A stretch of DNA of 64,000 bases, taken from IMG/VR virus record IMGVR_UViG_3300025401_000012, one strand, 5' to 3'. The notes beneath the pieces are model-generated. The model saw only the letters and a program-made list of their open reading frames with translations, made no database searches and was not told the origin of the DNA. Origin of the DNA: a virus. Lineage: Duplodnaviria > Caudoviricetes. Of the stretch, positions 7,113 through 28,373 are shown in pieces. Position numbers and translations under genes: made by a program. Positions within the stretch are counted from its first letter, which is position 1; the number at the start of each line of letters is the position of its first letter.

Positions 7113-9782
7113 TTAAAACTCAAATAAACTGTTAAATGTATTTTTTTCTTCTGTACTATTGATGTCCCAATTTAATACACCAATTAAGTTATCTAACTTA
7201 TTATCGATAATAGTTTGTTCCATCTCAGCGTGATCAAATGCTAAGTCTTTGAACCACTGTGGTAACCTCAGTTCATCCACTGGATATGCAACTGATGTAA
7301 AACCTAACGGATTAGGTTTGAGTTTACAAACAATAACTTTTGCACCGTCTGTAATACCCATAGAATATTTGTCGTTATACATTCGTTTAAGAGTATTCCA
7401 ATTGATACTAGCACGAACGTGACCGGGCATATTAGCTTTACCTGCTTTGGCTTCTTTAGCTTGATAGTCGGTGATATTGTTAGCACGTTTAGGTGAACCT
7501 TTTTCCCAACCAGGTCTCCCTTTGAATTTAATTCTAAATTCACTAATCATATCTAACACTTCTTTTTCACCTTTGCCTAGTAATACCATTTCAAGAACAT
7601 CACTTAAAAAGTTTTGAATAAATTCTGGAGTATCACTACGCTTAAGATCTAAGCCCATGGCCTTAATTTTACCAGGTTTACCATCCACATCTGTACGTTT
7701 GCCTTCTTTATCATAATAAAGCACTGCATAGCGTTTCTTGGTAATAAACAATGCTTTACTTCCTACAATTTCTCTGCCTGCTCGTATAACTTCTCCTCGA
7801 GTTTTTGGACAATGAAATTGATCTAGCATAAATTGTGGGAATGTAGTATTAACTTCTTCACCAATTTGGTCGTATAAAGCAACAACTGTTTCTTTTGTCC
7901 ATGGAATCTTCCCAGCATCGATGTCTTTTTGAAGTGTTTTATATGCACTAAAATAGCACGAGTCAGTGTCTCCGTAGATGACAGCTTTGCCTTTGTGATC
8001 ATACTCACCGGCAATGATTTCATTTACTTTACTTGCCATATGTCGGACGATCTGGCGTCCTGTAAGTGTAGTTGATTGTCCAATACGTTTATCGAAGAAT
8101 CTGCACCCGCTATTAAGAATAGCACCATACAAACTGTTAAGATTAATCTTTTTAACAAGTTGTCGTTTGTCCCAATATTCTTCTTCAACTTTGTTTCCAG
8201 CTTTAATTGCATCTTTTAATTTGGCCTGCATTTCCTTACGTTCTGCATACCAACGCTTTAACAGCCCAGGAATAATACCTTCTTTTTCATAAGTGAAAAT
8301 AGTACCGTTTGCTGAAAGCATCCAAGGCTGATTGCTTTCGTAAATAAGTCTATAAACTTCTGCAGCACTTAAGATATCAGTTTCGCCATTTTCCCAATCG
8401 ATAGTTATATCAGTTCCAATCTCTTGATTCATTACAGCTTCATATTCTAAACTACCAAAGACACCTTCCCAAGATGCTGCAAAACTCTTGCCTTTCGCCA
8501 TTTGTAATTCGATAAATTCTTCTGTTTTTGTTTGTCGTAATTGTCCAATAATAGTCTCTGGACCCATATTTAATGCACGAATAGCTGACGGATACAGACT
8601 GTTAATATCTAAAGATCCAACCCAGTCTACAATGCCTTCTTTAGGAACTGCCACATACGCACCAGCCGCAGCCGTATTTTCTTCTCGGTCGTCTTTCTTA
8701 ATACGATTAGGAACTTGAAAACCTCTGCGGTGTGCTTCGTTAATAATAGCTTGTTCAGTGACGGCCACAGCGCCCATTGTAGTTTGCAACAATACTGTAT
8801 TTTCATGTGCTAGTGTGTTAGCAAGATCCATGAACTTTAATTTTTTATCTAAATCGTCAAGAAGTTTACAGTCATTAATATTATATTCAACAAATGTTTT
8901 AAAATCATTATTGTATAGTTGATCAAGTGTACCTTCGTATTGTGTTTTACGTTGACCCAATTCATATTCTGCAATAGCATCTAGTCTATAACTATGTCGT
9001 TCTTCGTATGTATACTTGCGATATAATTCGAGATAATCTAAATGTACACGACCGACATAATCGTAAGTTGTACTAGTACGACCGTATTTTTCGTATTCGC
9101 GTTTTTTAGGTAATTGATCAAATAAACAAAATCGTCTAGTATCTTCTTTACTCAATGCCTTGATGACACGATTAGTAGTATAAGGCACGTCAAATCCTTC
9201 GCTATTCCAACCACTAATAACATCAGCATCTTGTATAAGATCTAAGAACATGCTTAATAAATCTGCTTCGTTATCGAACAAATAAGTATTGGGAAAGTCC
9301 TTAACCATTTCCTTAGCTTCTTCCATCTTAAGACCTTTAGGCGGAATAGCTAAACATACCATAGTTTCCAACCATTGTAAGTAGACAGCAATCGCAGTGA
9401 TTGGCATAAATGCATCGTCTGGACTAGCATAGCCACGCTCCGGATCAAAGTCTACCTCAATATCAAAGAACGCTGTGTGTAATTTAGGAGGATCTTGGTT
9501 AAGATAATGTTCGCTTAGTGTTACAAAGATTGGATTAATATCAGACTCATATAAAGTCTTGCCGCTATTAATGGCTTGTTCTTTGCGTAGTTCTTTTGTA
9601 TTTTTACAAACAATACGTGTAAGTGTATCACCGTAGATTGATTGAAATTTGCCCTTAGGGTCTTTGACGTAAAATGTGTGCTTGACAGGAATGTCTCGAA
9701 ATTCACGTTCACCTTTTTTGTTACGTTCAACAACTCGAATGATATCATTCTCGCGGTCAAACCATGCGTCTACATACGACAT
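7113..9782 (-). CDS. Family B DNA polymerase (T4 gp43-like)
   Basis: Exonuclease motifs FFDIEV, GWNSEGFD, YNINDC; polymerase motifs SLDINSLYPS, KINLNSLYG, YGDTDS, KKRY. Confidence 0.97.
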   Translation of the reverse strand: MSYVDAWFDRENDIIRVVERNKKGEREFRDIPVKHTFYVKDPKGKFQSIYGDTLTRIVCKNTKELRKEQAINSGKTLYESDINPIFVTLSEHYLNQDPPKLHTAFFDIEVDFDPERGYASPDDAFMPITAIAVYLQWLETMVCLAIPPKGLKMEEAKEMVKDFPNTYLFDNEADLLSMFLDLIQDADVISGWNSEGFDVPYTTNRVIKALSKEDTRRFCLFDQLPKKREYEKYGRTSTTYDYVGRVHLDYLELYRKYTYEERHSYRLDAIAEYELGQRKTQYEGTLDQLYNNDFKTFVEYNINDCKLLDDLDKKLKFMDLANTLAHENTVLLQTTMGAVAVTEQAIINEAHRRGFQVPNRIKKDDREENTAAAGAYVAVPKEGIVDWVGSLDINSLYPSAIRALNMGPETIIGQLRQTKTEEFIELQMAKGKSFAASWEGVFGSLEYEAVMNQEIGTDITIDWENGETDILSAAEVYRLIYESNQPWMLSANGTIFTYEKEGIIPGLLKRWYAERKEMQAKLKDAIKAGNKVEEEYWDKRQLVKKINLNSLYGAILNSGCRFFDKRIGQSTTLTGRQIVRHMASKVNEIIAGEYDHKGKAVIYGDTDSCYFSAYKTLQKDIDAGKIPWTKETVVALYDQIGEEVNTTFPQFMLDQFHCPKTRGEVIRAGREIVGSKALFITKKRYAVLYYDKEGKRTDVDGKPGKIKAMGLDLKRSDTPEFIQNFLSDVLEMVLLGKGEKEVLDMISEFRIKFKGRPGWEKGSPKRANNITDYQAKEAKAGKANMPGHVRASINWNTLKRMYNDKYSMGITDGAKVIVCKLKPNPLGFTSVAYPVDELRLPQWFKDLAFDHAEMEQTIIDNKLDNLIGVLNWDINSTEEKNTFNSLFEF

Positions 9783-9864: not shown

Positions 9865-10122
9865 TTAGATACGTTTTGTAATATCTAAAATAGCTTCAAT
9901 TTCTTCCCAATCTGCATTATAAGCCTGCCAATCGCCTTTATGTGCAATTTTAATTGCACGATTGATAACACTTGGTTTTACTTGTAATTCTTCTGCTACA
10001 GCCTTAACTGTTTCTTTTAAACCTTCTTGTAAATCTTCAACTTCACGCAGAACAGTTGAACCTTCTGCAATCAAACGTTCTAATTTTGCCTTTTCTTCGG
10101 GACCATAACTACGACCTGACAT
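9865..10122 (-). CDS. Small helical dsDNA-binding protein (T4 DsbA/GapR-like), putative
   Basis: 85 aa; pattern LERLIAE...LKETVKAVAEELQVKPSVINRAIK. Confidence 0.5.
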   Translation of the reverse strand: MSGRSYGPEEKAKLERLIAEGSTVLREVEDLQEGLKETVKAVAEELQVKPSVINRAIKIAHKGDWQAYNADWEEIEAILDITKRI

Positions 10123-10187
10123 ATTATCTCCTTAACTATATTGCCTATTATATACTAATTATCTTGTAAACACAACCTTTAGAGGTG

Positions 10188-10215
10188 AAAATGGCAGAAA
10201 TTAATCTGCCATTTT
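10188..10215. terminator. Intrinsic terminator hairpin
   Basis: AAAATGGCAGA-aattaa-TCTGCCATTTT inverted repeat just after the stop of 10222..12942. Confidence 0.75.
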
Positions 10216-10221
10216 ACTTGA

Positions 10222-12942
10222 TTAACCTCGAGCAATCTTTAACCAACGAGCTAGTTCATCATGGTATGATTCTTTAACACCGTTTGTATTTGGCATAGAT
10301 GTACCATCTTTTCCAATAGTTGTTCCACTAGGTATCAATTTACTACCAAATAAATCTTTACCATCTGGGCCTGTAACTGGTGATGGAGATGTTTTAAATT
10401 TACCAGAATTATCTGTAGTAGTTCCTGCAGGGCTTGATGCTGTTCCAGATTTGTCAGCAGCCTTTTTCTCTCCAGCAACTGAAGTTGCAGCTGCTTCAGC
10501 TGCTTTCTTTTTATCAGCATCTGACACTGGACCTGCTGCGGTTCCTGGACCACTAGGAATAGTAGTTGCAGCGTTACCGCCTTTGTTTGGATCTAGATTA
10601 GAACTGTTAGAATGATCAACTTTGGCGATAACTTGATCACCGTGCGCTACAGCTTTGGTCCAGGCTGGATCTACATCTTTAGGATCGTGTGCTTTTTCTA
10701 ATGCACGAATCTTGTCAATGATTGCTTGCTGTTCTGGAGTTACTTTACTAGCCGATGCATCTGGAGTAGTTGTAGGAGTATCTCCTGTTGTTGTACCAGT
10801 ATCAGCAGATCCTATTCCACTATTATCACCGCCACCACCTGTTGTTGTAGGTTCTGGAGTATCATCTCCGCTTAATGCTGCCGCACCACCGATACCTAGT
10901 GCTGTAGCACCTAACCCAGCTTTAATTGGATTCTTAGCAATTGCAGCTCCGGTCTTAAGCCCAGCTTTTTCAGCACTAGATAATGCTTTGCCTCCGGATC
11001 CGCCCATCTTAGCTAGTCGTTCTGCAGCTGCTGGACTTGCACCACCCTTAACAGTAGATCCTATAAATTTACCAGCACCTTTAACAGCATCTTTACCCAT
11101 GTTCCACAATGCACTTCCTAGTCCTTCTACAATTTCAACTTCGCCTTTTTCATAAGCATCGTTAATAACTGATATAGTAGTTAAGTCTGTTACTTGTTCA
11201 CCGATACCATTATACATATAATAGTATTCGTCTAGATAATATCTTTGTTCTAGTGTTTCTCTAATTGCAGCTTTAGTTTCAATTAATTGTAAACGTTCTT
11301 GTAAACTACGAATACCTTCGGCAACTGTTTGCTGGGATTCTTTGATTCCAGCTTTGCCATATGTTGCTGGGCCTGGTAATCCGTCCGGAGTAAGACCTTG
11401 CGATTGTTGCCATGCTACTAATTTTTGTTTTGTTTCTGGACCCATCATACCATCTGGTTTTGCACCAATTATTTTTTGTAATTGCATTAGTTTTGCATCA
11501 CCGCCAGTTGTTCCTGTCGGAGATGCAGCATCTCCAAATTTACCAGCTTTATAATCACGTGCTAGATTAGCAGCATCTAACCCCATTGATACTGCACCAC
11601 CTACTCCAGGCACTAGACTTAATGCGGCACTAACACCTGCAATTCCTGCGCCAGTCCAATCACCTTCTTGGGCACGTTTGATAGCATCTACAGTACCAAC
11701 AACTAATCCAACACCTGGAATTAATTTGCTTAACATTTTACCACCAGCTTTTGCACCTGCCTTAGCAGCCACTTGTGCAGCCGCTTCTTCAGCACTCTTT
11801 GCAATAGGAACGCCAGCTTTTTGTAAACCAGCGGCAATCTTTGGTGCTTCGGCAGCTGCTGCTGGCGCTGTTTTTGCTATATCTGCAACTCCGGTAGATG
11901 CAGCTTTCATCTCAGGTGCTGCATACTTTACATTACTCACATTACCTTGCATTTGTCCGCCACTAAAATTAGGAGCGGCTTTTGGAACTTCTGCTTTCGG
12001 AACTTCTGCAGCAGGTAATTCTGGTGCTTTATATGAAGCACGGCCAGCTTCAACATTTGCGCCAGCTGAACCTCTAGCGGTCAACGGCTTATCCAATGGA
12101 TCAGCAACATTATATTTTGTTCGCATAAATCCAGGAAGATTTGGATTATCTGCGAGTTCATCTAACTGATAGCCAAAACTTTCAACAAGGCTTTGTGCAA
12201 TACCTGAATTAAATTCTGTACCTTCTCTGTATAGTTGATGATACAAATCAGTTCCTCCACCGGCTAAACCAGTAACAGCAGCACCCGGTAACCCTCCTAC
12301 TACAGCACCAGGGATTGCGCTAGCACCTGTTGCCAGTGCAAGTTCTTTCCAATTAAGTGATTTATTTTTAGGTTTAGGAGTTGGTCCAGGAGTTGGTCCA
12401 GGAGTTGGTCCAGGAGTTGGCATTGGCGCAATATCGCCTTTTATTGTTGCTTCTAGTTGTGCAATTAGTTCTTCTAATTTTTTAGCATCATCATTTGCAA
12501 CAGGAGTTGGTCCAGGCGCTGGGGCCGGAGCAGGAGTTGGTTTGTCTATATCTACCAATGCTTTAGGATCGACATAGGCATACCCTCCTTTGTCAATAAT
12601 TTGTAAACCGGCTGCACGAATACGTGCTGCATCCTTTTGACTTTCTCCAGGACCGCCTGATTGCATCCACTTAAATGGATATCCTTTAGGTTGGGGAGTA
12701 CCGATCTCACCGCCATCGTCTCCGTAAAAAATTTGTCCAGTTTTTGGATTAATAGCTATTCCAAAACGCGGAATTTGATTCATTGGTGTATTTGCTATTT
12801 TTTTAACATCGGCAATCGCAGCTGATTTAGCATCATCTGATTTAAATTTATCGTATGCAGCACGTTGCAGATCTGTATCAGAAGGAGGTTTGCTTTCTTC
12901 TGCAATGTGATCCAACCTTGTCATTAAATCTCTTAAGTTCAT
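10222..12942 (-). CDS. Large Ala/Gly/Pro-rich virion-associated protein with a peptidoglycan-binding-like domain
   Basis: PG_binding_1-like LMQLQKIIGAKPDGMMGPET...WQQSQGLTPDGLPGPATY; PTPG linker; start set at MNLRDL behind a TAAATA motif and GGGG RBS. Confidence 0.7.
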   Translation of the reverse strand: MNLRDLMTRLDHIAEESKPPSDTDLQRAAYDKFKSDDAKSAAIADVKKIANTPMNQIPRFGIAINPKTGQIFYGDDGGEIGTPQPKGYPFKWMQSGGPGESQKDAARIRAAGLQIIDKGGYAYVDPKALVDIDKPTPAPAPAPGPTPVANDDAKKLEELIAQLEATIKGDIAPMPTPGPTPGPTPGPTPKPKNKSLNWKELALATGASAIPGAVVGGLPGAAVTGLAGGGTDLYHQLYREGTEFNSGIAQSLVESFGYQLDELADNPNLPGFMRTKYNVADPLDKPLTARGSAGANVEAGRASYKAPELPAAEVPKAEVPKAAPNFSGGQMQGNVSNVKYAAPEMKAASTGVADIAKTAPAAAAEAPKIAAGLQKAGVPIAKSAEEAAAQVAAKAGAKAGGKMLSKLIPGVGLVVGTVDAIKRAQEGDWTGAGIAGVSAALSLVPGVGGAVSMGLDAANLARDYKAGKFGDAASPTGTTGGDAKLMQLQKIIGAKPDGMMGPETKQKLVAWQQSQGLTPDGLPGPATYGKAGIKESQQTVAEGIRSLQERLQLIETKAAIRETLEQRYYLDEYYYMYNGIGEQVTDLTTISVINDAYEKGEVEIVEGLGSALWNMGKDAVKGAGKFIGSTVKGGASPAAAERLAKMGGSGGKALSSAEKAGLKTGAAIAKNPIKAGLGATALGIGGAAALSGDDTPEPTTTGGGGDNSGIGSADTGTTTGDTPTTTPDASASKVTPEQQAIIDKIRALEKAHDPKDVDPAWTKAVAHGDQVIAKVDHSNSSNLDPNKGGNAATTIPSGPGTAAGPVSDADKKKAAEAAATSVAGEKKAADKSGTASSPAGTTTDNSGKFKTSPSPVTGPDGKDLFGSKLIPSGTTIGKDGTSMPNTNGVKESYHDELARWLKIARG
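12377..12420. repeat. 12-bp tandem repeat (GGAGTTGGTCCA x3.7) encoding a PTPG linker
   Basis: Directly visible; in frame within 10222..12942. Confidence 0.9.
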
Positions 12943-12962
12943 TATTTTTCCCCGACTTGATA

Positions 12963-12969
12963 TATTTAT
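12963..12969 (-). promoter_or_regulatory. T4-late-like promoter (A)TAAATA
   Basis: About 20 nt upstream of the ATG at 12942; the motif recurs before many late-type genes. Confidence 0.6.
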
Positions 12970-13817
12970 TTTACTGAGCATTTAGGCACTAGTTTACCGT
13001 TTTTAGTTTGCATGCCTGTTTGAACTTGTCCTGCACGACACACACTAGTTTTCTTTTTTGGCTTAATTGTTTTAGGTGCTGGTAACACATCTTCACCGAT
13101 ATTTTTATCTATTCCTCGACTAGCAACTCCGCCTTGCTTACGTTTTTTAGCAAGTTCGCTAATACCGTGGCGAATTTGTTCCAAATTTTGTTCTAGCCCC
13201 ATGAACATACCACCCTTGGCTTTTGCACAAATTTGTTCCCAAGCAAGTAAATCGTTTGACTCTGCTAATTCAGCAAGCTCTTTTAGTTGAGCACGAGTGC
13301 GCATGATACGATCTTTAAGTGTTGCTGGATTAGCTTTTTCGTGACTATGAATTAATGGATTATTTGGATCTTCAGAATCCATAGCAATTGGAGCTTCGTC
13401 TACTACATAATTACCCATACCAGGACCAACAGTAGGTGCCTTAATTGCACCGTGTGTGCTCATTGGTATATCAAAATTTTCTTTCATTAATACACGTTTA
13501 GCAATAACACCAGCGTACTGATTAATCAATTGCTGTTTTCGTGTGCTTTCTTCTACTTGTTCTTGTTCAACTTCGTGAAAAAATTTATTAAGTAAACTTG
13601 GTTTACGTTCCGTAACGGGAGCAGATTCTTGCTTTTGATAATGTTGCATTGCCATTTGTACAGGTAATGCAACTTTATGTGGATCTTTACCTTCGTGCAA
13701 ATTTTGCACAGTGGCATTTTTATCTACAATAGATAAAAACTTAGCCATGTCATTAGCACCAGCTACAGGCTTTGTAGCAACACTATCCATAGCCTGTAGT
13801 ATGCGCTTCATGTCCAT
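12966..13817 (-). CDS. Putative internal head protein
   Basis: 283 aa, charged and low complexity, with repeated hydrophobic-x-E motifs (LHE, VDE, IGE); inside the head-protein-like block. Confidence 0.55.
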   Translation of the reverse strand: MDMKRILQAMDSVATKPVAGANDMAKFLSIVDKNATVQNLHEGKDPHKVALPVQMAMQHYQKQESAPVTERKPSLLNKFFHEVEQEQVEESTRKQQLINQYAGVIAKRVLMKENFDIPMSTHGAIKAPTVGPGMGNYVVDEAPIAMDSEDPNNPLIHSHEKANPATLKDRIMRTRAQLKELAELAESNDLLAWEQICAKAKGGMFMGLEQNLEQIRHGISELAKKRKQGGVASRGIDKNIGEDVLPAPKTIKPKKKTSVCRAGQVQTGMQTKNGKLVPKCSVK

Positions 13818-13821
13818 CGGA

Positions 13822-15525
13822 TTATCCCAATAGACGCTTTGTCAATGCACGGATTTGATCAACTTCACGATTTTCAACTAACGCTGGTTTTTCAGCACGA
13901 TTTAAACGAGCTAGTTGTTCTTGCATACGTGTAAAATCTGTAGATTCTTTTACGGTTTCTTTTGCTTTTTTACCAGAACGTAATGCAGCTAAGTCTGATT
14001 TCTCAATCTTGCCATCATGATCAGCATCGATCTTTTCTTGATTGCCTGGCAAATCTTTAACAGCTTTTTTCTCTGCCATATAAGCAGTAGTTTCTTTGAT
14101 GTTCTTCCACATAGCGGCTGCAGCAATTTTCTTACCTTTCTCACCGCCACCAGCTTTCTTAGCAACATCTTTAAAACTCTTGCCTGGCTTACCGATATCT
14201 TTGCCTGCTTTAGCTTTTTTAACTGTAGCAGACTTTTCAGCCTTGCTTAGACCTGCACTTGGTTTAGCTTCGGAAACTTTCTTTGCTCTACCTGTAGGAG
14301 TAGTAGTCGTTGCATATTGATGTATTTGATCAATCTTTTTATGATTGCCTTTTTCAAGAGCGTCCTCTGCTCCTTGTTTTAAGTTTGCACCAGGGCTTTT
14401 GCTTTTGCCAATCTGAGCTACTTTTATAGCAGAGTCTTGACTTCTTTGACCACGAGGTGCGGCTTCTTTAACAGCCTTGCCACCCTTTTCGTCTTTACCA
14501 AGACGTCCGGCGATAACATCACCGCGTGTAATTTTGTCATATGGTTTAGCATTGTTGGCTAGGTTACCGTCGCCTTTCTTAGACGTTTTAGATTTAGCTT
14601 CCATTACAACACCTGGACACTCGTAAATGCCACCACCGTTTAGGTGCGGATGTTGATGGTAGCATTCTCCCATTGCACCATGTGTAATAGTACCGCCACA
14701 TGATTCACATGCTTCTTTGTGATGCATTGCTAATTCTAAATTGCCTGATTTGTGATGTTTTGCATATTCGCAAGCATGGTGATGTGCCATGTTACCAGGA
14801 GCCATTTTGGCTTCATTGGTTGTTGTTTTACCATCTTTGTGAATAGTTTGTTTACCAGGATTTGACTTGCCCCATGCTTTAGATTCTTTTTCTGCAGCTT
14901 TATCCATTGCACGATCACCTGCTTTATCAGCACTACTACGTGCTTTGGCATGTGATTTTGTACGATCATTATCACTGTGTGGCTCATCTGTGAAACGATC
15001 TGGATTATGTTTGTGAGTAATTGTACTACCTTTTTTAGTAGTCGTGCCACCTGTGCTACTACGCTTTTCATAGTCGCCGTTATCATCTGATTTTTTGTTC
15101 TTCCAATCAAATGCGTTTTCTGCCATTTTAGCAGCATCTGCTTTTTTAAGAGCTTTAAGTTTTTCTTTAGCCTCGTTTAAACGGAATTTAAGAACACGTT
15201 TTTGACTTTCACTAATTGGTGCATGATCAACAGCTTCGCCGTACTCACCAATTTTCTTTTCATAAGCTAGATAATGGTAAACACTAGCAATATTAGTAGC
15301 AGCAATAGTAATTTTGCTTTGTACCCATGCTTCTAATTGTTCGTCATCATCGATATGTTCTTGTAAATTGGTAGCATAGTTAGCTAACTTAATTAGCTCT
15401 TGCTTGGCCATTGCGCCTTCTTGGTCGCCGTTACCTTCAGCTGGCCCTTCTAGGCTAGGGTCTGCACCCATATCTGGCATGTCTTGATCCATTTCTGGTG
15501 CTTCTTGATCTAATTCTGGTGGCAT
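13822..15525 (-). CDS. Putative internal head protein, Lys/His-rich mosaic
   Basis: 567 aa; many [VILT]-x-E-[AST] sites, a His/Cys-rich segment, an EF-hand-like DADHDG motif; preceded by TAAATA. Confidence 0.6.
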   Translation of the reverse strand: MPPELDQEAPEMDQDMPDMGADPSLEGPAEGNGDQEGAMAKQELIKLANYATNLQEHIDDDEQLEAWVQSKITIAATNIASVYHYLAYEKKIGEYGEAVDHAPISESQKRVLKFRLNEAKEKLKALKKADAAKMAENAFDWKNKKSDDNGDYEKRSSTGGTTTKKGSTITHKHNPDRFTDEPHSDNDRTKSHAKARSSADKAGDRAMDKAAEKESKAWGKSNPGKQTIHKDGKTTTNEAKMAPGNMAHHHACEYAKHHKSGNLELAMHHKEACESCGGTITHGAMGECYHQHPHLNGGGIYECPGVVMEAKSKTSKKGDGNLANNAKPYDKITRGDVIAGRLGKDEKGGKAVKEAAPRGQRSQDSAIKVAQIGKSKSPGANLKQGAEDALEKGNHKKIDQIHQYATTTTPTGRAKKVSEAKPSAGLSKAEKSATVKKAKAGKDIGKPGKSFKDVAKKAGGGEKGKKIAAAAMWKNIKETTAYMAEKKAVKDLPGNQEKIDADHDGKIEKSDLAALRSGKKAKETVKESTDFTRMQEQLARLNRAEKPALVENREVDQIRALTKRLLG

Positions 15526-15549
15526 GAGTATACTCCGTTTATCTTTATA

Positions 15550-15555
15550 TATTTA
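15550..15555 (-). promoter_or_regulatory. T4-late-like promoter TAAATA
   Basis: 25 nt upstream of the ATG at 15525, followed by a GGAG RBS. Confidence 0.6.
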
Positions 15556-16188
15556 GCCTCTTTTAACGGCGGGCCCACCAAATAAGCTGGTACCTTTAAT
15601 ATCTAAACCGTTTTTGGCTGTTCCATCTGAGTTTTTAGGTTGGTTAACTTTGGGTTGCGGCGGTGCTTTAGTACCTGACCCAGTTGCTACACTACCTGTA
15701 TAACTTTTTTTACCACGTGCCTTACCAGGACTAATGTGTGGATTTACTACTGTTCCAATATTAGCAGCACTAGTAGCACCTACTGTAGCCGATTCTGTTA
15801 CACCATGTTTTTTAGCGGCAGCAATACGTGCATGAAGATGATGCAATCCATGTTCCATACTTCGCGCTTCGCGTTCAGCACTAGTAAGATTTTGTTCGCG
15901 GTCTGCGTATTGCCAACCATTGCCGCCTAATGATTTATATTTTGCTAGCATTCTAGCATATTCGGCTTCTAGTTCTGGAAGATTAGCATGATCTTTTGCT
16001 GTAGCATCTTGGGCACGTTGATGTGTAGCCTGACGGTCTGCATCACGTTTTTCTTGATCTTGACGACGTAATTCATCATGTTCCGGATCGCCGTGTACAC
16101 GTAAGTTTTTAAATTTAGGATTATTCTTTTGTAAATCTTTAAAAAATGACATCATATCATTTTCGTTCATTAGCTCTCGCATTTTCAT
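15553..16188 (-). CDS. Putative internal head protein
   Basis: Starts MKMRELMNE; VTES site followed by ATVGATSAANIG; basic C-terminus. Confidence 0.6.
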   Translation of the reverse strand: MKMRELMNENDMMSFFKDLQKNNPKFKNLRVHGDPEHDELRRQDQEKRDADRQATHQRAQDATAKDHANLPELEAEYARMLAKYKSLGGNGWQYADREQNLTSAEREARSMEHGLHHLHARIAAAKKHGVTESATVGATSAANIGTVVNPHISPGKARGKKSYTGSVATGSGTKAPPQPKVNQPKNSDGTAKNGLDIKGTSLFGGPAVKRG

Positions 16189-16415
16189 TTCTTAATTCCT
16201 CTGTATCCAGTGCCGACAGCACGTTCGCCATTCATAAACTTAGGTAAACTAAACCACAACTTGAACCATTCTTCAGTTCCCGGTTGTATATTTTGTTCAC
16301 GCATGATTTTTGCTTTTTCTGTACCAGTTATACTGATATTACTTCCGCCGTAAGGTTGCAGGCCTTTAAATTCATTAACGCCAGCTAACTTCTTAAGACG
16401 TGCTAATTCATCCAT
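16185..16415 (-). CDS. Small putative head-associated protein
   Basis: Starts MDELARLKKLAG; coupled overlaps with both neighbours. Confidence 0.6.
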   Translation of the reverse strand: MDELARLKKLAGVNEFKGLQPYGGSNISITGTEKAKIMREQNIQPGTEEWFKLWFSLPKFMNGERAVGTGYRGIKK

Positions 16416-16789
16416 TATACACCGTACTTGTTCTTTTTAGTTTTAGCCACAGGACTTGCGGTATGGGTGTCATCGGGTTCACGGCTAGGTGTACGCGGGC
16501 GTACTTGATGATATTCTGTAGGAATAGCACTATGCACTTGTTGAATCATTTCGTGCTCTTTATCTGTATATGGATGTAAAGTCCACATAGTCCCCATCCA
16601 GCTTTCGTGATCGAGGTCTAATTTTTCTTTACTACCATCAGCCATAGCTAGTGCCATGCCAGTTCTTAATTGATGATAGCTAGGAAACCAACCTCCGGGA
16701 TCACGTTGACGACTAAACCCCTGATGAACAGCATCGTGATGTTCGTGTGGTTTGCCAGATCGCTCAACAATAAATTCTTTAGCTCTCAT
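16415..16789 (-). CDS. Putative internal head protein; paralogue of the C-terminal domain of 16789..18063
   Basis: MRAKEFIVE start and SPVAKTKKNKYGV end. Confidence 0.65.
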   Translation of the reverse strand: MRAKEFIVERSGKPHEHHDAVHQGFSRQRDPGGWFPSYHQLRTGMALAMADGSKEKLDLDHESWMGTMWTLHPYTDKEHEMIQQVHSAIPTEYHQVRPRTPSREPDDTHTASPVAKTKKNKYGV

Positions 16790-18063
16790 TATATTCCGTA
16801 TTTGTTCTTTTTAGGTTTAGCTACAGGGCTAGTAACATTACCGCCGTCTGCTTCATTACTAACGCTATCGCTTATATGTGTAATAGCTCCTGCCCCCATT
16901 GTTTTAGCAGCGTCTTTTACCTTTTGCATTTCTGCATCAGTGTATGCTGTAATTAATGGATCACCGCTCATAGCACCTGCGCGAGGCATGTCTGGATTAG
17001 CCATAGCAAGACCAAATCTATATTGCATGTATGGACTACCGTTGGCTTTGTTCATGCTGATGTTAGGAATACTCATGGCATTTTTTAATGCTTGAATATG
17101 TACATGGTGTAATTCTTCCGAACCTCTGCCAGCATATGGTACATCGCCTTCTGCTAGTTTTTTACGCATAAATTCTTGTGCTCTCATTTCTCGTATTACC
17201 TTATTAGCATATTTAACTGAATTTTCAGAAGTCTTAGTATATACTTGTTTAACTTGTTTAGAGCCTTCACCTCTTTCAATTTTTTCAGGATCTTTAGCTT
17301 TTTCTTTTTCAAAATACTTACGCATTTCTTCAGTACTTGCTGAAGATTTTTTAACAACAGGTTTATTAGATTTTGCTAAAAATCCCATCAGGCTTTCATC
17401 AGCTACTTTTTCTTTTTTAGGCTTTTTACCAAAAGTAGGATCAGCCATGCGCACTCCTGCTTTGTGCATTAAGTCTCTAACCTCATTATCATCGAGTTCA
17501 GGACTCATAGCATCACGCCACGCACTGAATTTTTCATCATCTGTTGCGTTAGGATTTTTAAGAATATCACGCATTGGTGTAGCACGTGGGCCTTCTTCTT
17601 CTCTACTAGGATCGTTAGTTTCCTGACGACTAATAACGTTTAAATTATCAAAATTAAATGGAATATTTCCTTGTTTATCGGGCACACCATTATATTGTTT
17701 AACATAACTTAAACTATTAACTTGATCGGCACCGACAACAACAGTACAATCACTATAGCCCATTTCATTTAACTTACGCAGTACACGAGTTAAATCAGGC
17801 ATTTCTTCTGTTGCTGTATGAAATATGTGTCCGTGTTTAGGAAACACTTTTTTGTATATATGCAACTTTTCTTCTGGAGTTATTGGATCATCTTTTCCTA
17901 CGGTACGACTAACAACAAAATAAGGATCTGCGCCCGATTCATTAGCTTGCGTAATAACACTGCTAGCTAGGTACATATGGCCTTTATGACCCATACCGCG
18001 CCCCCATCCTACTACGCAGGATTTGCCTTCTCCGGTGCGATTAAGAAATTCACGTAACAGCAT
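16789..18063 (-). CDS. HIGH-type (cytidylyltransferase/NMNAT-like fold) nucleotidyltransferase fused to a head-protein-like domain
   Basis: VVGWGRGMGHKGH (HxGH), VVGADQV, RATPMR (SxSxxR-like); start set at MLLREF (18063). Confidence 0.65.
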   Translation of the reverse strand: MLLREFLNRTGEGKSCVVGWGRGMGHKGHMYLASSVITQANESGADPYFVVSRTVGKDDPITPEEKLHIYKKVFPKHGHIFHTATEEMPDLTRVLRKLNEMGYSDCTVVVGADQVNSLSYVKQYNGVPDKQGNIPFNFDNLNVISRQETNDPSREEEGPRATPMRDILKNPNATDDEKFSAWRDAMSPELDDNEVRDLMHKAGVRMADPTFGKKPKKEKVADESLMGFLAKSNKPVVKKSSASTEEMRKYFEKEKAKDPEKIERGEGSKQVKQVYTKTSENSVKYANKVIREMRAQEFMRKKLAEGDVPYAGRGSEELHHVHIQALKNAMSIPNISMNKANGSPYMQYRFGLAMANPDMPRAGAMSGDPLITAYTDAEMQKVKDAAKTMGAGAITHISDSVSNEADGGNVTSPVAKPKKNKYGI

Positions 18064-19915
18064 TGTCTTTCCTTGGCGCCCAATTAGCTTGATCGATTGT
18101 TTTGACAAACTGTCCTGGCAAATCGTGTTTAAATTTACCTCCAGGATGTGCTTGTACATATCCCTCTGGTTTAGTTTGTCGTATCCCACCATGTGTTCCG
18201 GAACTTAATGAATTAATAACTTTCATTTTTTCGTGTGTTAGTAATTCTACAGCACTTAATACTGCATCTAATCCTGGATGTGTTAATACTTTTTCAGCTT
18301 GGCTGTTGCTTAACTTAGTTTGCGCCCATTGAGCAAATTGTTGTTTAACTCCAGCAACACGTAAATTTTGATTATAGAATGAATACAACACATCACCTGG
18401 TTTACTTAAACCTGGCTGCCCAGCAATAAAACTATCAATTAACGATTTATTTTTCTTAATATAATCTTCTGCATGTTTTAATCCAGTATCATCTACTTTA
18501 GGTGGATGTTCGACATACGTTGTACCTTGCACAATAACATCTGGTGTTGATAGTTTTTCTGCATCAGGATACCGTGTTTCATCTGACCCGATATGTGTGT
18601 AATAACCGGTTGCAGCTACCATAACTTTAGCGTTGGCAATACGTTTGCCTAATGCACTGCCTACTGGAATATGAAAACTAGTAATGTTAGGTCTAAAATC
18701 ATATTCGTTAGTCGATTGATTTAGTTGTGCTGGTTGTAACGGACTAAACAATATTCCGCCTTCGATGTATCCTTTTTTAGGACTGATCTTTTCAAAGTAC
18801 GGCCATAGATCTGCAAGGCCTTGCGCAAATGCACGACGTTGTTCTTCTTGTCCAGGTTGTGTGTTACCTGTACCTAGTACAAACATGGCAACGTCATCTG
18901 GATCATTCATCATAGTAGTTACACCACTCTTGGTATGGGTAGTACCACGCTTCATATAATCCCAAGCGTTCTTGGGGAACATATGGAACTTGCCGTCTTC
19001 ATCCCTGCCCCAATAAATGACAGGACTACCATCCCACTTTAATTCTATTGTGCCACCTTTGCTAGTCATATGACGCAGACGTTCAACCGCATGTAATCCA
19101 CCAGTACTACCATTTGTAAATACTAGATCTTCAATGTGCTGATACTTCCGACCTACAGCAGGAGCTGCTGCTTCATTAATTTGTTTAGGACTAACAGCTT
19201 GCCAACTTGCTCCACTGCTTGCAGATTGAAATATTTCATTTCTGCGAGTTTCATCGGGGATTGCGTTCATAATACTTTCAACACTACCCAAATCTTTAGC
19301 ATTTGCATGTGGCCCAATTAAACGTTTAGCAATTTCATCTAAATCGTCACTAATAAATTCTGATTTCTTCCCCATAGCATCTCGGGCATAAAGTCCTTCG
19401 TCCGGAGACCATAACATACCTTGACTACTTGCTAGTGCGTTCATCATCATTTGTTTGTGAACGCCTTTATAAGGACTGCCTTGTGGAATGGAATGATGGT
19501 GAAATTTATGAACCCTTTCGGCATTACCAACAGCTTTAATATCGACTTGATAGAATTTACCTTTATATGGTAAAAGAATATGTACAGTTACTCCGGTTTT
19601 TTTAGTTTGTAAACCTTTGCCTTGCAAATAGTGTTCTAATTCAGCTCTAGTAGTTTTACCATCTTTAGTGCCAAACTGTTTCATCAGTTGACCTAAGTCA
19701 ACCATAACATCTAAATCGCCGCTCATTTTACCAGGAGTCGGTGTCGCTGCGCTTCCAATTAAGTGTACGCTACTTTGTATTCCGTGCAAATATTTGTTTG
19801 TTTCTTGGGCAAGATGCGCAGCAATTGCTTGATCGAATTCTTCGGATTCCGGCCAAATATTTCCACCTTCTAGAATAGGTTTCCTAACATCGAGGAACAA
19901 TTCACGTAATAACAT
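18050..19915 (-). CDS. Two-domain protein: Pol-beta-like nucleotidyltransferase plus KxDG ligase-like domain (DUF6267-like)
   Basis: N-terminal LIGS...SGDLDVMV and YQVDI; C-terminal HIEDL...ELKWDGSP...EGGILF...PEGYV...FVK. Confidence 0.6.
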   Translation of the reverse strand: MLLRELFLDVRKPILEGGNIWPESEEFDQAIAAHLAQETNKYLHGIQSSVHLIGSAATPTPGKMSGDLDVMVDLGQLMKQFGTKDGKTTRAELEHYLQGKGLQTKKTGVTVHILLPYKGKFYQVDIKAVGNAERVHKFHHHSIPQGSPYKGVHKQMMMNALASSQGMLWSPDEGLYARDAMGKKSEFISDDLDEIAKRLIGPHANAKDLGSVESIMNAIPDETRRNEIFQSASSGASWQAVSPKQINEAAAPAVGRKYQHIEDLVFTNGSTGGLHAVERLRHMTSKGGTIELKWDGSPVIYWGRDEDGKFHMFPKNAWDYMKRGTTHTKSGVTTMMNDPDDVAMFVLGTGNTQPGQEEQRRAFAQGLADLWPYFEKISPKKGYIEGGILFSPLQPAQLNQSTNEYDFRPNITSFHIPVGSALGKRIANAKVMVAATGYYTHIGSDETRYPDAEKLSTPDVIVQGTTYVEHPPKVDDTGLKHAEDYIKKNKSLIDSFIAGQPGLSKPGDVLYSFYNQNLRVAGVKQQFAQWAQTKLSNSQAEKVLTHPGLDAVLSAVELLTHEKMKVINSLSSGTHGGIRQTKPEGYVQAHPGGKFKHDLPGQFVKTIDQANWAPRKDNAVT

Positions 19916-19917
19916 TA

Positions 19918-20289
19918 TTAATCCTTGTACTTGCCAGTTTGTATGTGTTCACGTGTTTCTTCGTGTAGTTTTTTACATGCATCTTCACATGTTTTATCTT
20001 CTAAAATATCGGGCAATTCACGGATAGGAAATTTTTTCTTATATAATTTATAACATTCGTGCATTGTTTCTGCAAACATTTTAGCATCTGTAGGTTTTTT
20101 ATCTTTAATACGATCTATGCACTTCATTAAAACAGGAAACACATAACGACGATAAACATGGTCATCATTGTGCATAAAATGCAATAGATCTTCTACTAGA
20201 TCGTAGTCGATTTCACGCTTGTCACCTTGTTTTTTAACAAAATCTAACTCTTTAAAGTGAGCGTTTTCTAATAACTCTTGTATACGCAT
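19918..20289 (-). CDS. Putative head-associated protein
   Basis: MRIQELLEN start; first gene behind TAAATA at 20341-20336. Confidence 0.6.
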   Translation of the reverse strand: MRIQELLENAHFKELDFVKKQGDKREIDYDLVEDLLHFMHNDDHVYRRYVFPVLMKCIDRIKDKKPTDAKMFAETMHECYKLYKKKFPIRELPDILEDKTCEDACKKLHEETREHIQTGKYKD

Positions 20290-20335: not shown

Positions 20336-20341
20336 TATTTA
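20336..20341 (-). promoter_or_regulatory. T4-late-like promoter TAAATA
   Basis: Intergenic, heads the 20289-15553 block. Confidence 0.6.
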
Positions 20342-20361: not shown

Positions 20362-20976
20362 CTAGGCTTTAAGTATGCGTTCAATCTTGCTTATACTACT
20401 ACCCAAGTGCATTTTTGCCAATAATAAGTTGTTATCGCCTGTAATATAAAAGTGTGTACCACCCCAACTGCGCGGCTTTTGTAAATCTCTGATACAACTT
20501 TTAGTTAGCTTGCATTTTGTACTTTTATCAGCCCATTCGATAAATGCAGGGTTAGGTTGTGTAGTCTTACCCAATGTAACTCTAAAATCATAATTTATTT
20601 TAGGCATTATGATTGTATCGGATGTTAAATTATTACCTGCTGGTTCGCAAATATACTTTACCCTGCTGGCATCTAATTTAGCTAGTTTTTCTACGTCTTT
20701 TTTATTGTTAGAATACACACTTATCCACGGACTTTCTACTCGCAAATCTATATCTGCCATTTTAGATAATTCGCTAGCTAATGAAATAGCATATATTTTA
20801 TCGGCTAACGTCTTAATAGAGCTAGATCGGTGAGGGATTGTGTTAGATGAATTTAATTCATCTATAATAGCACTAAATTCTTTATTTCGAAAGAACCCTG
20901 AACCACTGCATACCAGTACAATTTTGTACTGGTATACTCCTCTAAACAATTTTGTAGTAAGTTTTTTACGTAACAT
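20362..20976 (-). CDS. Hypothetical protein
   Basis: 204-aa ORF overlapping the clpA stop. Confidence 0.7.
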   Translation of the reverse strand: MLRKKLTTKLFRGVYQYKIVLVCSGSGFFRNKEFSAIIDELNSSNTIPHRSSSIKTLADKIYAISLASELSKMADIDLRVESPWISVYSNNKKDVEKLAKLDASRVKYICEPAGNNLTSDTIIMPKINYDFRVTLGKTTQPNPAFIEWADKSTKCKLTKSCIRDLQKPRSWGGTHFYITGDNNLLLAKMHLGSSISKIERILKA

Positions 20977-23245
20977 TTAAATCTACTAATGATGGTGCAT
21001 TATCTACAGTTAAAAGTTGTACTTTTGATTCCTTAGGAGTAGATACTAACAATAACTTATTGTCGGTTACAGTAATACTTAACAAACCGCCGTTCTTAAG
21101 TTCACCAAACAACATTAATTTAGCCAACGGACGTTTGATTTCTTTATCAATAACACGTTGTAACGGACGAGCACCCATTTTAGGATCAAATCCGTTAGTA
21201 ATAAGCCAGTTAGTACTTTCCTTATCTAGTTTAATCTTGATACCCTTTTCTTTAACTTGAGCACGAAGTTCGTCCATGAATTTAACAATAACTTTAGTCA
21301 TTGATTCTTTGCCCAATCTGTTAAATGTCATGATACCGTCTAAACGATTACGGAATTCTGGTGTAAAGAATTTCTTTAAATCTTTATCACTGTATTCTCT
21401 ATCCTGTGTACCAAACCCAATTGTATTCTTTTCAGCATCTTGTGCACCAGCGTTGGTAGTAAGAATAAGAATTAAGTTACGGCAATCTGCTCGTTTACCG
21501 TTTGAACCAGTAATAAAACCATTATCCATCATTTGTAATAATACTGTTGTAACATCTGGGTGAGATTTTTCAACTTCATCAAACAACAGAACAGCATTTG
21601 GATTTTCTTGTATTTGTGTAATTAGTAATCCGGCATTTTCTTCAAATCCAACATAACCCGGAGGGCTACCGATTAGCTTAGAGATGCTATGCTTCTCTTG
21701 GTATTCTGACATATCAAACCGTAATAGTTTAACACCTAGATGCTTGGCAAGCGACTTGGCAGTTTCAGTCTTACCGCAACCGGTTGGCCCCATGAACACA
21801 AACGATCCAATTGGTTTATTTTCTGATTTTAATCCTGCTTGTGCAACCATAATTTTATCTACAACTTCTGTAATAGCAAGATTTTGCCCGTACACTTCTG
21901 CTTGTAAATTAGTTTCTAAAGTAGCAAGATTGCTAGATTCAGTTTCCATAATTTTTTCTTCAGGCATTTGAATCATTTTAGCAAGCTCAAATTGAATCTC
22001 GTGCTCACCGATTACACGTTCTTCTGCAATTTTAAGATTAAAACGCGAGCATGCTACATCAATTAAATCAATAGCTTTGTCTGGAAGTTTTTTATCTGTT
22101 TGATATTTGACAGATAATTTAACAGCTGCCTGCAATGCATCATTACGAATTTTAACATTGTGGAATGTTTCGTAATACTTTTTAATACCCTGTAATATGC
22201 TTAAAGTCATTTCTTGTGTAGGTTCATCGACTGTTATGCGTTGGAAACGACGCATTAATGCACGATCCTTTTCAAAATGCTTACGATATTCTTCCCATGT
22301 TGTGCTAGCAATGACTTTAATATTGCCTTTACTTAGTGCAGGCTTCATCATATTAGCAAGATCGTTAGAACTATTTCCGGCACTGCCTGCACCAGAGATC
22401 ATGTGTGCCTCGTCAATGAATAATACAGTCTTACCTTTCTTTTGTAGAGCTTTGATAACATGTTTAAAACGTTCTTCAAAGTCTCCGCGATATTTAGATC
22501 CAGCTAACATAGCTGAAATATCTAAACTATATACTTTGTAATCTTTTAGGAAATCAGGAACATGCCCTTTGACAATATTATAAGCAAGTCCTTCTGCTAT
22601 AGCAGTTTTTCCTACGCCAGGATCGCCTACTAAGATTACATTGTTTTTGCTACGACGACCTAATGCTAACGCAATGTTTTCTAATTCATCAATACGCCCG
22701 ATAACCGGATCAACTTTTTGTTTTTCTACTAGATCATTTAAGTTACTAGTAAATGCTTTCAACGCTCGATCACTTTGTGAATCTTGTGGACCTTCTTCAT
22801 CTTCGGAAGTATCATTTACATTGTTTAGGTAATCTGCAAACTTATCTTTATCTATTTTGGCTTTATTAATATAGTAATAAGACCAGCTACGTTTTTCACC
22901 GATCATTGCTAAAAATACATCGGTAGGTTCGATTTTCTGTCTGCCATTAAACAGTACTTGTGTAAATGCACGATTAAGCACACGTTCAACACTTTGTGTT
23001 TTTTTAGGTTTAACAACAACATCTTCAATAGTAATTTCTTGGCACTTGTGGTGTAGATAATTGGCCAAATCATCTTTTAATTCTGCAAGATTTGCACCGA
23101 ATCCTTCTATAGTATTACTAAAAGTTTCATCTGCTAACATAGAAAATAACAAATGTTCAATTGTTAGATATTCGTGATGTAATTTTTTAGCTGTATCTAT
23201 TGCACGTTCAAATACAGCTTGTAAGTTATCACTTGGTTCAACCAT
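20966..23245 (-). CDS. clpA: ClpA-like AAA+ unfoldase (Hsp100)
   Basis: Clp N-domain (HEYLTIEHLL), Walker A GDPGVGKT and GPTGCGKT, Walker B FIDEAH and LFDEVEK, pore loops KYRG and GYVG, IGF ClpP-docking loop; no ClpB middle domain. Confidence 0.92.
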   Translation of the reverse strand: MVEPSDNLQAVFERAIDTAKKLHHEYLTIEHLLFSMLADETFSNTIEGFGANLAELKDDLANYLHHKCQEITIEDVVVKPKKTQSVERVLNRAFTQVLFNGRQKIEPTDVFLAMIGEKRSWSYYYINKAKIDKDKFADYLNNVNDTSEDEEGPQDSQSDRALKAFTSNLNDLVEKQKVDPVIGRIDELENIALALGRRSKNNVILVGDPGVGKTAIAEGLAYNIVKGHVPDFLKDYKVYSLDISAMLAGSKYRGDFEERFKHVIKALQKKGKTVLFIDEAHMISGAGSAGNSSNDLANMMKPALSKGNIKVIASTTWEEYRKHFEKDRALMRRFQRITVDEPTQEMTLSILQGIKKYYETFHNVKIRNDALQAAVKLSVKYQTDKKLPDKAIDLIDVACSRFNLKIAEERVIGEHEIQFELAKMIQMPEEKIMETESSNLATLETNLQAEVYGQNLAITEVVDKIMVAQAGLKSENKPIGSFVFMGPTGCGKTETAKSLAKHLGVKLLRFDMSEYQEKHSISKLIGSPPGYVGFEENAGLLITQIQENPNAVLLFDEVEKSHPDVTTVLLQMMDNGFITGSNGKRADCRNLILILTTNAGAQDAEKNTIGFGTQDREYSDKDLKKFFTPEFRNRLDGIMTFNRLGKESMTKVIVKFMDELRAQVKEKGIKIKLDKESTNWLITNGFDPKMGARPLQRVIDKEIKRPLAKLMLFGELKNGGLLSITVTDNKLLLVSTPKESKVQLLTVDNAPSLVDLNVT

Positions 23246-27638: not shown

Positions 27639-27640
27639 GC

Positions 27641-28210: not shown

Positions 28211-28238
28211 AATTGTGGTTTCCAGAAGCTTCTGTACT

Positions 28239-28297: not shown

Positions 28298-28373
28298 ATA
28301 GTGTAGGACCTCTGTAGTTATCATAGGCGGTCACTACAAGTCTTACTTTTTCATAAAAGTAGGAGCAACTTTA

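Follow-up and report, generated by a model that had tools for sequence, protein, structure and literature searches.

The DNA analyzed here, hereafter the window, is a stretch of 64,000 nucleotides (nt) from the IMG/VR virus record IMGVR_UViG_3300025401_000012 and comes from the genome of a freshwater jumbo phage that belongs to the T4 superfamily and has not been cultured. Between positions 10222 and 20289, its minus strand carries a block of nine genes that are transcribed in the order p123, p621, p424, p124, p76, p211, p567, p283, and p906; their tight coupling is seen in overlaps of the types TAATG and ATGA (Table 1). Several of the encoded proteins start with a short peptide of common pattern, termed the tag in the following, and some carry a second short motif at one of their termini. 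The family B DNA polymerase encoded downstream of the block shares 43–49% identity with its counterparts in Sinorhizobium phage Phosso, Agrobacterium phage Atu_ph07, and Rak2/121Q-like coliphages. Megablast comparison of the block with cultured phages gave no match. A search of IMG/VR with the 621-amino acid (aa) product p621 identified 59 related loci (59–91% identity). One of the contigs retrieved (G001; 345,369 bp, estimated 94% complete), whose p621 orthologue is 86% identical to that of the window, was tiled in full and served as stand-in genome.

The tag was defined as M-x-[LMAI]-[RKQ]-[ED]-[LF]. In the window, 7 of the 486 ATG codons with at least 50 aa downstream (both strands) match this pattern, and all seven lie inside the block. 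They comprise the six gene starts listed in the preliminary description (MNLRDL in p906, MKMREL in p211, MRAKEF in p124, MLLREF in p424, MLLREL in p621, and MRIQEL in p123) together with MRAQEF at 17187 inside p424, all on the minus strand; the starts of p621 and p424 are indeed near-identical in DNA. When gene starts were compared, the tag was found at six of the nine in the block versus none of the 37 others (Fisher p = 9e-6). The number of tagged proteins is thus six rather than the about ten suggested earlier; the second motif occurs in three products, one of which (p906) has both, and p283 has neither. In G001, 9 of the 382 called gene starts match the tag pattern, or 10 if the p123 orthologue is taken to start at an inner ATG, versus 0.27 expected from the internal 4-mer frequency. 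The 59 related loci contain 230 open reading frames (ORFs) that start with the tag, without exception on the strand of the block.

The tag residues are invariant or conservatively changed over 15–32 distinct DNA versions of the orthologues, and many synonymous codons are used. In the p621 orthologues, R4 is encoded by CGT, CGC, AGA, or CGA, and L3 by four different Leu codons. Because the codons vary freely while the residues stay fixed, the constraint acts on the peptide and not on the RNA or DNA; an RNA-level cause of the conservation was rejected on the basis of this synonymous variation. In an alignment of 41 p621 sequences, L3, R4, E5, F7, and E16 are invariant, and positions 8–15 vary in sequence and length. 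At 58 related loci, the p123 tag is invariant at residues 3, 6, and 8 and has E or D at position 5, and the residues that follow are variable.

In the p906-, p211-, and p124-type slots of the related loci, the tag is kept in front of bodies that are only 24–31% identical or have been replaced; for the tag itself, identity values are overestimates owing to the sequence selection. Products of the p906 slot range from 498 to 961 aa with differing domains; they always start with MN-[LIM]-RDL...[ILV]-x-E15, and the next hundred residues average 24% identity. In the p211 slot, MK-[IM]-[KR]-E-L and the last ~90 residues are kept and the N-terminal half is swapped out, and MRA-x-EF fronts at least two unrelated bodies in the relatives. 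In natural p621-p424 fusions (984–1003 aa), the second tag is gone (MLLREFL to DNIQENI), as would be expected if one label per polypeptide suffices. Such single polypeptides were observed in the relatives P0029, P0043, P0054, P0059, and P0066; their C-terminal cassette after VIRE-MRAxEF occurs in two unrelated versions, one like the tail of the window p424 and one like p124. In the AlphaFold2 (AF2) model of p621, residues 1–17 lie outside the fold at a predicted local confidence (pLDDT) below 50, with a short helix at residues 2–7, and in p424 the tag precedes the first strand by 14 residues. The core idea of the preliminary description, a modular N-terminal address tag of the T4 capsid-targeting type on unrelated late proteins including enzymes, withstood all tests applied: the peptide is kept while the bodies are swapped. 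Packaging and injection would be its putative outcome.

Table 1. Positions of the block genes, promoter-like motifs, and neighboring features in the window (nt; a slash follows the Glu of a putative cleavage motif).
Feature	Position	Strand	Remarks
TAAATA, p123	20336–20341	−	47–52 nt upstream of the start, within the 72 nt that separate p123 from the early Clp/p204 operon
p123	19918–20289	−	123 aa; first gene of the predicted late block; tag MRIQELLE, putative cut after E8 (nt 20266–20289)
p621	18050–19915	−	621 aa; tag MLLRELF, variable linker, I-L-E16 (nt 19868–19915); PolX-like domain; DUF6267
p424	16789–18063	−	tag MLLREFL; HxGH cytidylyltransferase-like domain; C-domain from VIRE-MRAQEF
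p124	16415–16789	−	tag MRAKEFIVE, putative cut after E9 (nt 16763–16789)
p76	16185–16415	−	76 aa, basic; starts with second motif MDELARLKKLAGV (nt 16377–16412)
p211	15553–16188	−	211 aa, basic; tag MKMRELMNE (nt 16162–16188)
TAAATA, p567	15550–15555	−	own motif
p567	13822–15525	−	Lys/Ala-rich, basic, N-terminus acidic; untagged; C-terminal ..VE/NREVDQIRALTKRLLG (nt 13825–13872)
p283	12966–13817	−	basic; neither tag clear; repeated D-M-x-K-F-L-S-I-V-like segments
TAAATA, p906	12963–12968	−	between the ATGs at 12981 and 12942
p906	10222–12942	−	last block gene; tag MNLRDLM..IAE15 (nt 12898–12942); C-terminal second motif ..VKE/SYHDELARWLKIARG (nt 10225–10260)
PG_binding_1 domain of p906	11359–11466	−	residues 493–528
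p85	9865–10122	−	85 aa; between block and DNA polymerase
DNA polymerase	7113–9782	−	family B
Clp-type ATPase	20966–23245	−	759 aa; two genes upstream of the tagged block, which its operon adjoins
Baseplate-wedge-like gene	34832–35914		preceded by TAAATA
Giant ORF	36191–50476	−	4761 aa
Tail-fibre-like gene	53750–55210		preceded by TAAATA
Halogenase-like gene and radical-SAM-like gene run	128–1669 and 56523–63993	−

Most tags are followed by a Glu in a hydrophobic-x-E motif, namely IVE9 (p124), LLE8 (p123), ILE16 (p621), IAE15 (p906), and MNE9 (p211), and these motifs are conserved in the orthologues. They are kept at variable distance from the tag: E16 of p621 and E8 of p123 are invariant, and the p906 family has I/V/L-x-E15. 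An early [ILV]-x-E (residues 7–20) is present in six of the nine block proteins, yet also in 27% of all G001 proteins. The preliminary description had taken [ILV]-x-E as a general mark of domain boundaries. This was not clearly above chance: the block has 1.53 sites per 100 aa, a modest rise of 1.5 times over the 1.01 that its composition predicts, and the remaining genes have 1.06. The hydrophobic-x-E sites that are conserved are those directly after the tags and just before conserved C-terminal peptides.

The head module was identified in G001, where the genes follow the T4 order 20-67-68-21-22-23 and encode the portal (PHROG 213), a 79-aa protein, an acidic 294-aa protein, the protease, a 364-aa coiled-coil protein at the scaffold position, and the major head protein (PHROG 138). 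The protease is of the gp21 type (PF03420, E = 5.6e-27; PHROG 207). The 79-aa protein at the gp67 position begins with MILRELF, the tag as it stands in p621, and its homologues begin with MKINDIITE (Cassandra), MLDEIFE (GAP32), and MLKDIFE (UB). In T4, the role of the capsid targeting sequence (CTS) and the L/I-x-E specificity of gp21 are experimentally established (PMC9026906, PMC5694885). The first ten residues of the internal protein (IP) IPIII suffice for head loading, with residues 4 and 7 serving in targeting and residues 8 and 10 in cleavage, and reviews regard the CTS as a general route by which T4-like phages load varied proteins (PMC9026906, PMC5694885, PMC3012670). The T4 N-termini (NC_000866) read MKTYQEFIAE/A in IPII and IPIII, MELITELFDE/D in Alt, MAKINELLRE/S in gp24, MLKEQLIAE/A in gp22, and MNEPQLLIE/T in gp21; those of the block read MRAKEFIVE/R, MRIQELLE/N, and MKMRELMNE/N or, with a linker, MLLRELF..ILE/G and MNLRDLM..IAE/E. 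Both sets follow the same pattern, hydrophobic-polar-E-[LF]-hydrophobic-x-E, which is one residue shorter in the block.

The second motif, described earlier as DELAR-type at the N-terminus of p76 and the C-terminus of the large protein p906, was found at both places and is conserved. The orthologues of p76 start with MDELARLKKLAG-[IV], those of p906 end with ..ELARWL-[KR]-IARG, and those of p567 end similarly with ..[DE]-x-[IM]-[RK]-x-L-x-[KQ]-R-L-[LN]-G, in most cases with hydrophobic-x-E before the peptide. A new point of this analysis is that the same motif also forms the C-terminal end, directly at the stop, of the scaffold-position protein in G001 and other jumbo phages (G001, ..DIRKLAGLKI; Cassandra, ..ELRRLAGIK; Phosso, ..ELRRLAGIEK; GAP32, ..EIAKLSGMDKKR; UB, ..ELDVLSGINKK). 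In G001, a loose pattern for the motif gave 7 sites versus 0.98 in shuffled proteins (0 of 300 shuffles reached 7), and a stricter one gave 6 sites in 5 proteins versus 0.007 expected; both patterns were likewise set post hoc. These five comprise, besides the scaffold and the orthologues of p906 and p76, two further late proteins (822 and 326 aa). The genes of the latter two (G001 26401–28869, minus strand, and 9956–10936, plus strand) are each preceded by TAAATA, and both products have the scaffold-like ..KIAGL.. motif together with IAPMP/Pro-rich linkers as in p906; they likely represent further cargo encoded outside the block. In Cassandra, a strict DNA pattern for R-L-A-G-I matched nowhere but in the scaffold.

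In a predicted complex of the major capsid protein (MCP) and p76 of G001, a weak score of 0.39 was obtained (best of three controls, 0.01) with no interface reported; the runs agreed in at least 65% of contacts, and the partner pLDDT was at least 56. In the calibration of this prediction, 51 of 78 solved complexes reached the mark, as did 2 of 108 mismatched pairs, and scores of 0.60 or below comprised only 5 of the 78 solved complexes and all 4 passing mismatches. By this calibration, most passes of this kind are false unless the guess was probable beforehand, and the result is taken as a lead only.

The proteins behind the tags are of different types. The N-domain of p621 (residues ~21–216) is a predicted family X polymerase-like domain whose model comprises palm and thumb of these enzymes. 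It matches Pol β with Z = 10.7–11.0 and a root-mean-square deviation (rmsd) of 3.8–4.4 over 173–187 aligned residues, and PolX of African swine fever virus with Z = 10.0 and an rmsd of 3.4 (160 of 176 aligned); Foldseek retrieved Pol λ (E = 1.4e-5). Residues G54, S55, D67, and D69 of the G-S...D-x-D nucleotidyltransferase motif are invariant. The C-domain of p621 corresponds to Pfam DUF6267 (E = 7e-17) and has invariant K293, W294, D295, and G296 (KWDG), resembling ligase motif I. RNA ligases were the top Foldseek rows with E of 0.07 or weaker, and the values for REL1 (Z = 4.8) and T4 DNA ligase (Z = 4.2) are within noise; a sequence search of the PDB gave nothing at E up to 1. The domain is referred to as ligase-like on account of DUF6267 and the KxDG motif only. 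p424 is a predicted HxGH cytidylyltransferase/NMNAT-like protein that matches PHROG 3041 (cytidyltransferase, E = 2.8e-21) and PHROG 395 (E = 2.2e-8); its GHKGH motif is kept in the orthologues, and tblastn retrieved annotated cyanophage cytidyltransferases. No Pfam match at E of 0.01 or below was obtained for p424, and searches of PDB sequences gave chance-level matches only.

The C-domain of p424 is paralogous to p124, both having the conserved C-terminal peptide ..SPVAK.KKNKYG.. in common. This domain begins with the seventh copy of the tag, VIRE-MRAQEF, with AAGG located 10 nt before its ATG; this copy is kept in all p424 forms, including the fused ones, and may serve as an internal start or as a cut site (I-R-E before the Met). 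For p123, p124, p76, p211, and p283, no family was found in Pfam and PHROGs. p76, p211, p567, and p283 are basic (pI 9.2–9.8) and Lys/Ala-rich, as are the T4 internal proteins.

The large protein p906 had been given 919 aa from a start at 12981; its most likely start is at 12942 (906 aa), since orthologues begin there and a TAAATA motif lies downstream of the ATG at 12981. It contains three Gly/Ala-rich hydrophobic segments (residues 201–219, 403–421, and 432–450) with Pro-rich linkers and a peptidoglycan (PG)-binding domain (PG_binding_1, PF01471, E = 6e-8), and the hydrophobic region aligns with PHROG families annotated as peptidase or endolysin. In the orthologues, both termini are conserved and the middle is reshuffled. 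Hydrophobic segments, here of the membrane-hairpin type, plus a PG-binding domain are typical of envelope-crossing ejection proteins; p906 probably helps the DNA to cross the envelope. As cargo, the block proteins may act early in repairing or sealing the genome, in the chemistry of nucleotides or NAD, and in passage through the envelope.

The preliminary description had the block driven by TAAATA motifs. Such motifs are present about 20–53 nt upstream of p123, p567, and p906; the late expression that would follow from them is a deduction from their likeness to the T4 late promoter core. The full T4 late promoter consensus TATAAATA was absent from the coding strand, which has only the shorter (A)TAAATA. 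Within the window, TAAATA also precedes the baseplate-wedge-like and tail-fibre-like genes. Upstream of the block, the Clp operon has TTGACA-N17-TATAAT in front of it instead, as have the p85/DNA polymerase operon downstream of the block and other metabolic genes. Two promoter-like classes thus split metabolic and replication genes (gene starts at 6308, 10122, 24589, 30058, 31390, and 56427) from structural and cargo genes (gene starts at 12942, 15525, 20289, 25508, 32248, 35914, 51699, and 55210). In G001, TAAATA was found within 70 nt upstream of 97 of the 382 genes versus 0.02 per 70 nt of coding sequence; the genes so preceded include four of the head module and the p123 and p567 orthologues.

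Homologues of block proteins occur in cultured phages. In the marine T4-like phages HTVC008M and Melnitz, homologues of the p424 HxGH domain and of p621 DUF6267 are encoded close together, and in cyanomyoviruses the cytidylyltransferase is found in the same neighborhood. The N-termini of the marine cytidylyltransferases are T4-style: MKKFSEIIE/A (Melnitz), MKNFFQFLSE/A (SynMITS9220M01), MKTLKFFLE/S (S-BM3), and MKNFSSFLTE/A (S-CREM2 gp154). S-CREM2 gp154 and its neighbors gp155, gp156, and gp160 were detected by mass spectrometry (MS) in CsCl-purified virions, and cytidyltransferases are often detected in cyanophage virions (PMC10665884). A literature search for capsid targeting sequences in cyanophages yielded the T4 review only, and PMC10665884 names no targeting sequence. 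In Pseudomonas phage PA5oct, whose scaffold is homologous to that of G001, proteins flagged as detected by electrospray ionization tandem MS (ESI-MS/MS) include EST35_0150 at the gp67 position, EST35_0238 with (V)KIKDILVE/S, EST35_0237 with MFLKDVKITE/S, and EST35_0203 with MFNINDILRLAGV. The scaffold homologue EST35_0153 has no MS flag, as expected of a scaffold. In the PA5oct record (MK797984), the protease homologue EST35_0152 (84079–84711) is labeled 'prohead assembly (scaffolding) protein' and EST35_0153 (84724–85830) 'hypothetical'; these labels look like an annotation slip.

Taken together, we consider it probable that the block is a T4-type cargo-loading cassette, that is, a set of late-expressed head-cargo proteins. 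In the mechanism proposed, the amphipathic N-terminal tag would, like the T4 CTS, attach each protein to the scaffolding core during prohead assembly. A gp21-type prohead protease would then cleave behind a hydrophobic-x-Glu located at residues 8–16 and thereby free the cargo in the head, from where it would exit with the DNA at infection. The second signal, ..[DE]-L-x-R-hydrophobic-x-K-hydrophobic-A-G.., copies the C-terminal end of the scaffold and may tether p76, p567, and p906 as if they were scaffold. Core binding, cleavage, packaging, ejection, and the enzyme roles are all deduced from the sequences. That there are two separable labels, the T4-like tag and a scaffold-mimicking ..[DE]-L-x-R-x-x-K-L-A-G.. 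(the shell- or core-binding end of the scaffold, copied next to a protease site on either terminus of p76, p567, p906, and the 822- and 326-aa proteins of G001), with cargo acting as pseudo-scaffold that is freed by cleavage, as with encapsulin cargo-loading peptides and the herpesvirus scaffold tail, is a tentative proposal that we regard as rather doubtful. The hybrid N-termini MKIKELAGL.. and MFNINDILRLAGV.. hint that the two labels may be versions of one helix.

Several observations weigh against the block being such a cassette. The window is without head genes, and protease and scaffold come from the relative G001. The tag pattern was defined post hoc, which makes the p-values optimistic; therefore, weight was put on independent tests. 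p567 and p283 are without an N-terminal tag, p424 has no clear hydrophobic-x-E after its tag (TGE12 instead), and the internal MRAQEF is conserved though not N-terminal, so that the N-terminal position is not the sole constraint. The likeness to the T4 tags is one of pattern only, the peptides being too short for a statistical test of homology. As to the virions, the authors of PMC10665884 warn that abundant soluble proteins may co-purify. With a relaxed tag pattern, 8 ORFs were retrieved in Cassandra, a phage near-identical to PA5oct, and 4 of these 8 were MS-detected versus 93 of 461 in the background, a difference that is suggestive only (p ~0.06).

The tag might be recognized by something other than a growing head, for instance as a degron, as a docking peptide of a cytoplasmic enzyme complex, or by the ClpA/B-like unfoldase encoded upstream. 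Short N-terminal peptides are typical Clp recognition signals, the 759-aa Clp-type ATPase is encoded two genes upstream of the block on the same strand, and the head localization of the tagged proteins is putative. The Clp operon, however, has a sigma-70-like promoter and is separated from the block by TAAATA. Moreover, the tag is also present on the gp67-position protein within the G001 head module, it mirrors the N-termini of T4 head proteins including the Glu cut site, and homologues are found in virions, all of which make recognition of this kind unlikely. An assembly role elsewhere in the particle was also weighed, with the block proteins being tail or baseplate ejection proteins rather than head cargo. 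p906, with its hydrophobic segment and PG-binding domain, resembles large tail-associated or virion-associated lysins and ejection proteins, and some of the tag-like PA5oct proteins are encoded among tail-type structural genes. The Glu-ended tag, however, matches the substrates of a head protease that works inside the prohead, and the second motif is common to the scaffold, a protein of the head interior; a tail location is very improbable for the block proteins as a group, though it may apply to individual ones such as p906.

The tag could further be a historical by-product without any targeting role, which arose by duplication or by recombination at a 5' cassette boundary and was kept by descent or by translation initiation and coupling. 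The tight gene coupling through overlapping starts and stops, the paralogy of p124 and the p424 C-domain, and the two starts of near-identical DNA would fit such an origin, as would bodies that are swapped exactly at the tag, as if the tag DNA were the recombination site. On the other hand, the residues are fixed while synonymous codons are free, and the tag is a disordered extension on unrelated folds (PolX-like protein, HxGH transferase, membrane/PG-binding protein). Other highly expressed late genes, such as that of the MCP, are without it, and it is lost once it becomes internal in the p621-p424 fusions. A mere by-product of this kind is, in our view, quite unlikely.

Outside the block, the window carries further features. 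The Clp-type protein is a ClpA/B-type double AAA+ ATPase (PHROG 4871, E = 1e-248); its operon is apparently driven by a sigma-70-like promoter near 24589, and no ClpP was seen in the window. The protein p85 matches a family of phage transcriptional regulators (PHROG 639, E = 9e-11), and its gene has its own sigma-70-like promoter. The 4761-aa ORF adjoins the baseplate-wedge-like and 861-aa genes and probably encodes a giant virion or fibre protein. The tryptophan-halogenase-like gene (PHROG 2928, E = 3e-130) and the run of radical-SAM-like genes represent auxiliary chemistry that is unrelated to the tagged block. G001 encodes ribosomal protein bS21 (303984–304139, minus strand; PF01165, E = 2.8e-18) at a place unlike that in the published bS21 phages (PMC9723584). 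The idea of equating G001 with these phages was dropped, the G001 bS21 gene being far from the head genes.

If the block is a T4-type head-cargo cassette, the tag would provide a simple sequence rule for the proteins that an entire clade of uncultured giant phages, and probably marine T4-like phages as well, would inject with their DNA. The PolX-like/ligase-like enzyme and the NMNAT-like transferase would then be candidates for genome repair or counter-defence in the first minute of infection, and the repeated finding of 'non-structural' enzymes in cyanophage virion proteomes would be explained. Short portable peptides would become available for loading foreign proteins into large capsids, and the scaffold-mimicking motif, should it prove real, would add a new principle to cargo loading in tailed phages. 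The two promoter classes could serve to assign the genes of the whole genome to time classes.

Among known systems, phage P1 loads a set of large non-structural proteins, the Dar anti-restriction proteins, into a myovirus head; they are injected and act early (PMC9024508, PMC12810830). P1 packaging follows a Dar/Hdf hierarchy with no common short cleavable tag, and no homology to the block was seen. In the phiKZ-like phages SPN3US and phiKZ, many head-packaged proteins including enzymes are cut by a T4-related prohead protease after x-x-Glu, and the identical N-termini of the diverged paralogues gp53 and gp54 have been read as CTS-like (PMC5694885, PMC10052503). Their propeptides are mostly longer than 100 residues and end at S/A/G-x-E (PMC5694885), whereas the tags of the block have 8–16 residues with Glu sites after I, L, V, or M, by which the block as a set of phiKZ-type long-propeptide ejection proteins was ruled out; the head genes here are also of the Rak2/PA5oct/T4 type and not of the phiKZ type.

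The second motif has its counterparts in shell-binding peptides; a tailed-phage cargo that copies the terminal peptide of the scaffold was not found described in the literature consulted. In P22, phi29, and herpesviruses (pre-VP22a), the scaffold attaches to the coat protein through its C-terminus, and in herpesviruses a protease site just upstream releases it; the cargo-loading peptides of encapsulins are likewise short terminal amphipathic peptides and tether cargo inside an HK97-fold shell. The block is alike in having the motif at the termini of p76, p567, and p906, with hydrophobic-x-E before or after it.

S-CREM2 gp154 is homologous to the p424 HxGH domain, has a T4-like N-terminus, and is present in virions (PMC10665884); the marine tags differ in being longer and T4-style, whereas p424 is encoded within a larger cassette of tagged proteins and carries a further C-domain with its own tag. 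The closest model is the T4 CTS of IPI, IPII, IPIII, and Alt (Mullaney and Black 1996, reviewed in PMC9026906 and PMC3012670). In both cases, a short N-terminal peptide ending at L/I-x-E is found on unrelated proteins, hypervariable bodies stand behind a constant tag, and enzymes are among the cargo (Alt in T4). Differences are the variable linker of 6–8 residues before the cut site in p621 and p906, the linkage of six to nine genes over 10 kb as opposed to the small scattered IP genes of T4, the cargo itself (a PolX-like/KxDG enzyme, an HxGH transferase, and a 906-aa membrane/PG-binding protein), and the scaffold-like second motif. New with respect to the T4 CTS would thus be a shorter tag, in some proteins followed by a linker, a large linked cassette with new types of enzymes, and possibly a second, scaffold-like address.

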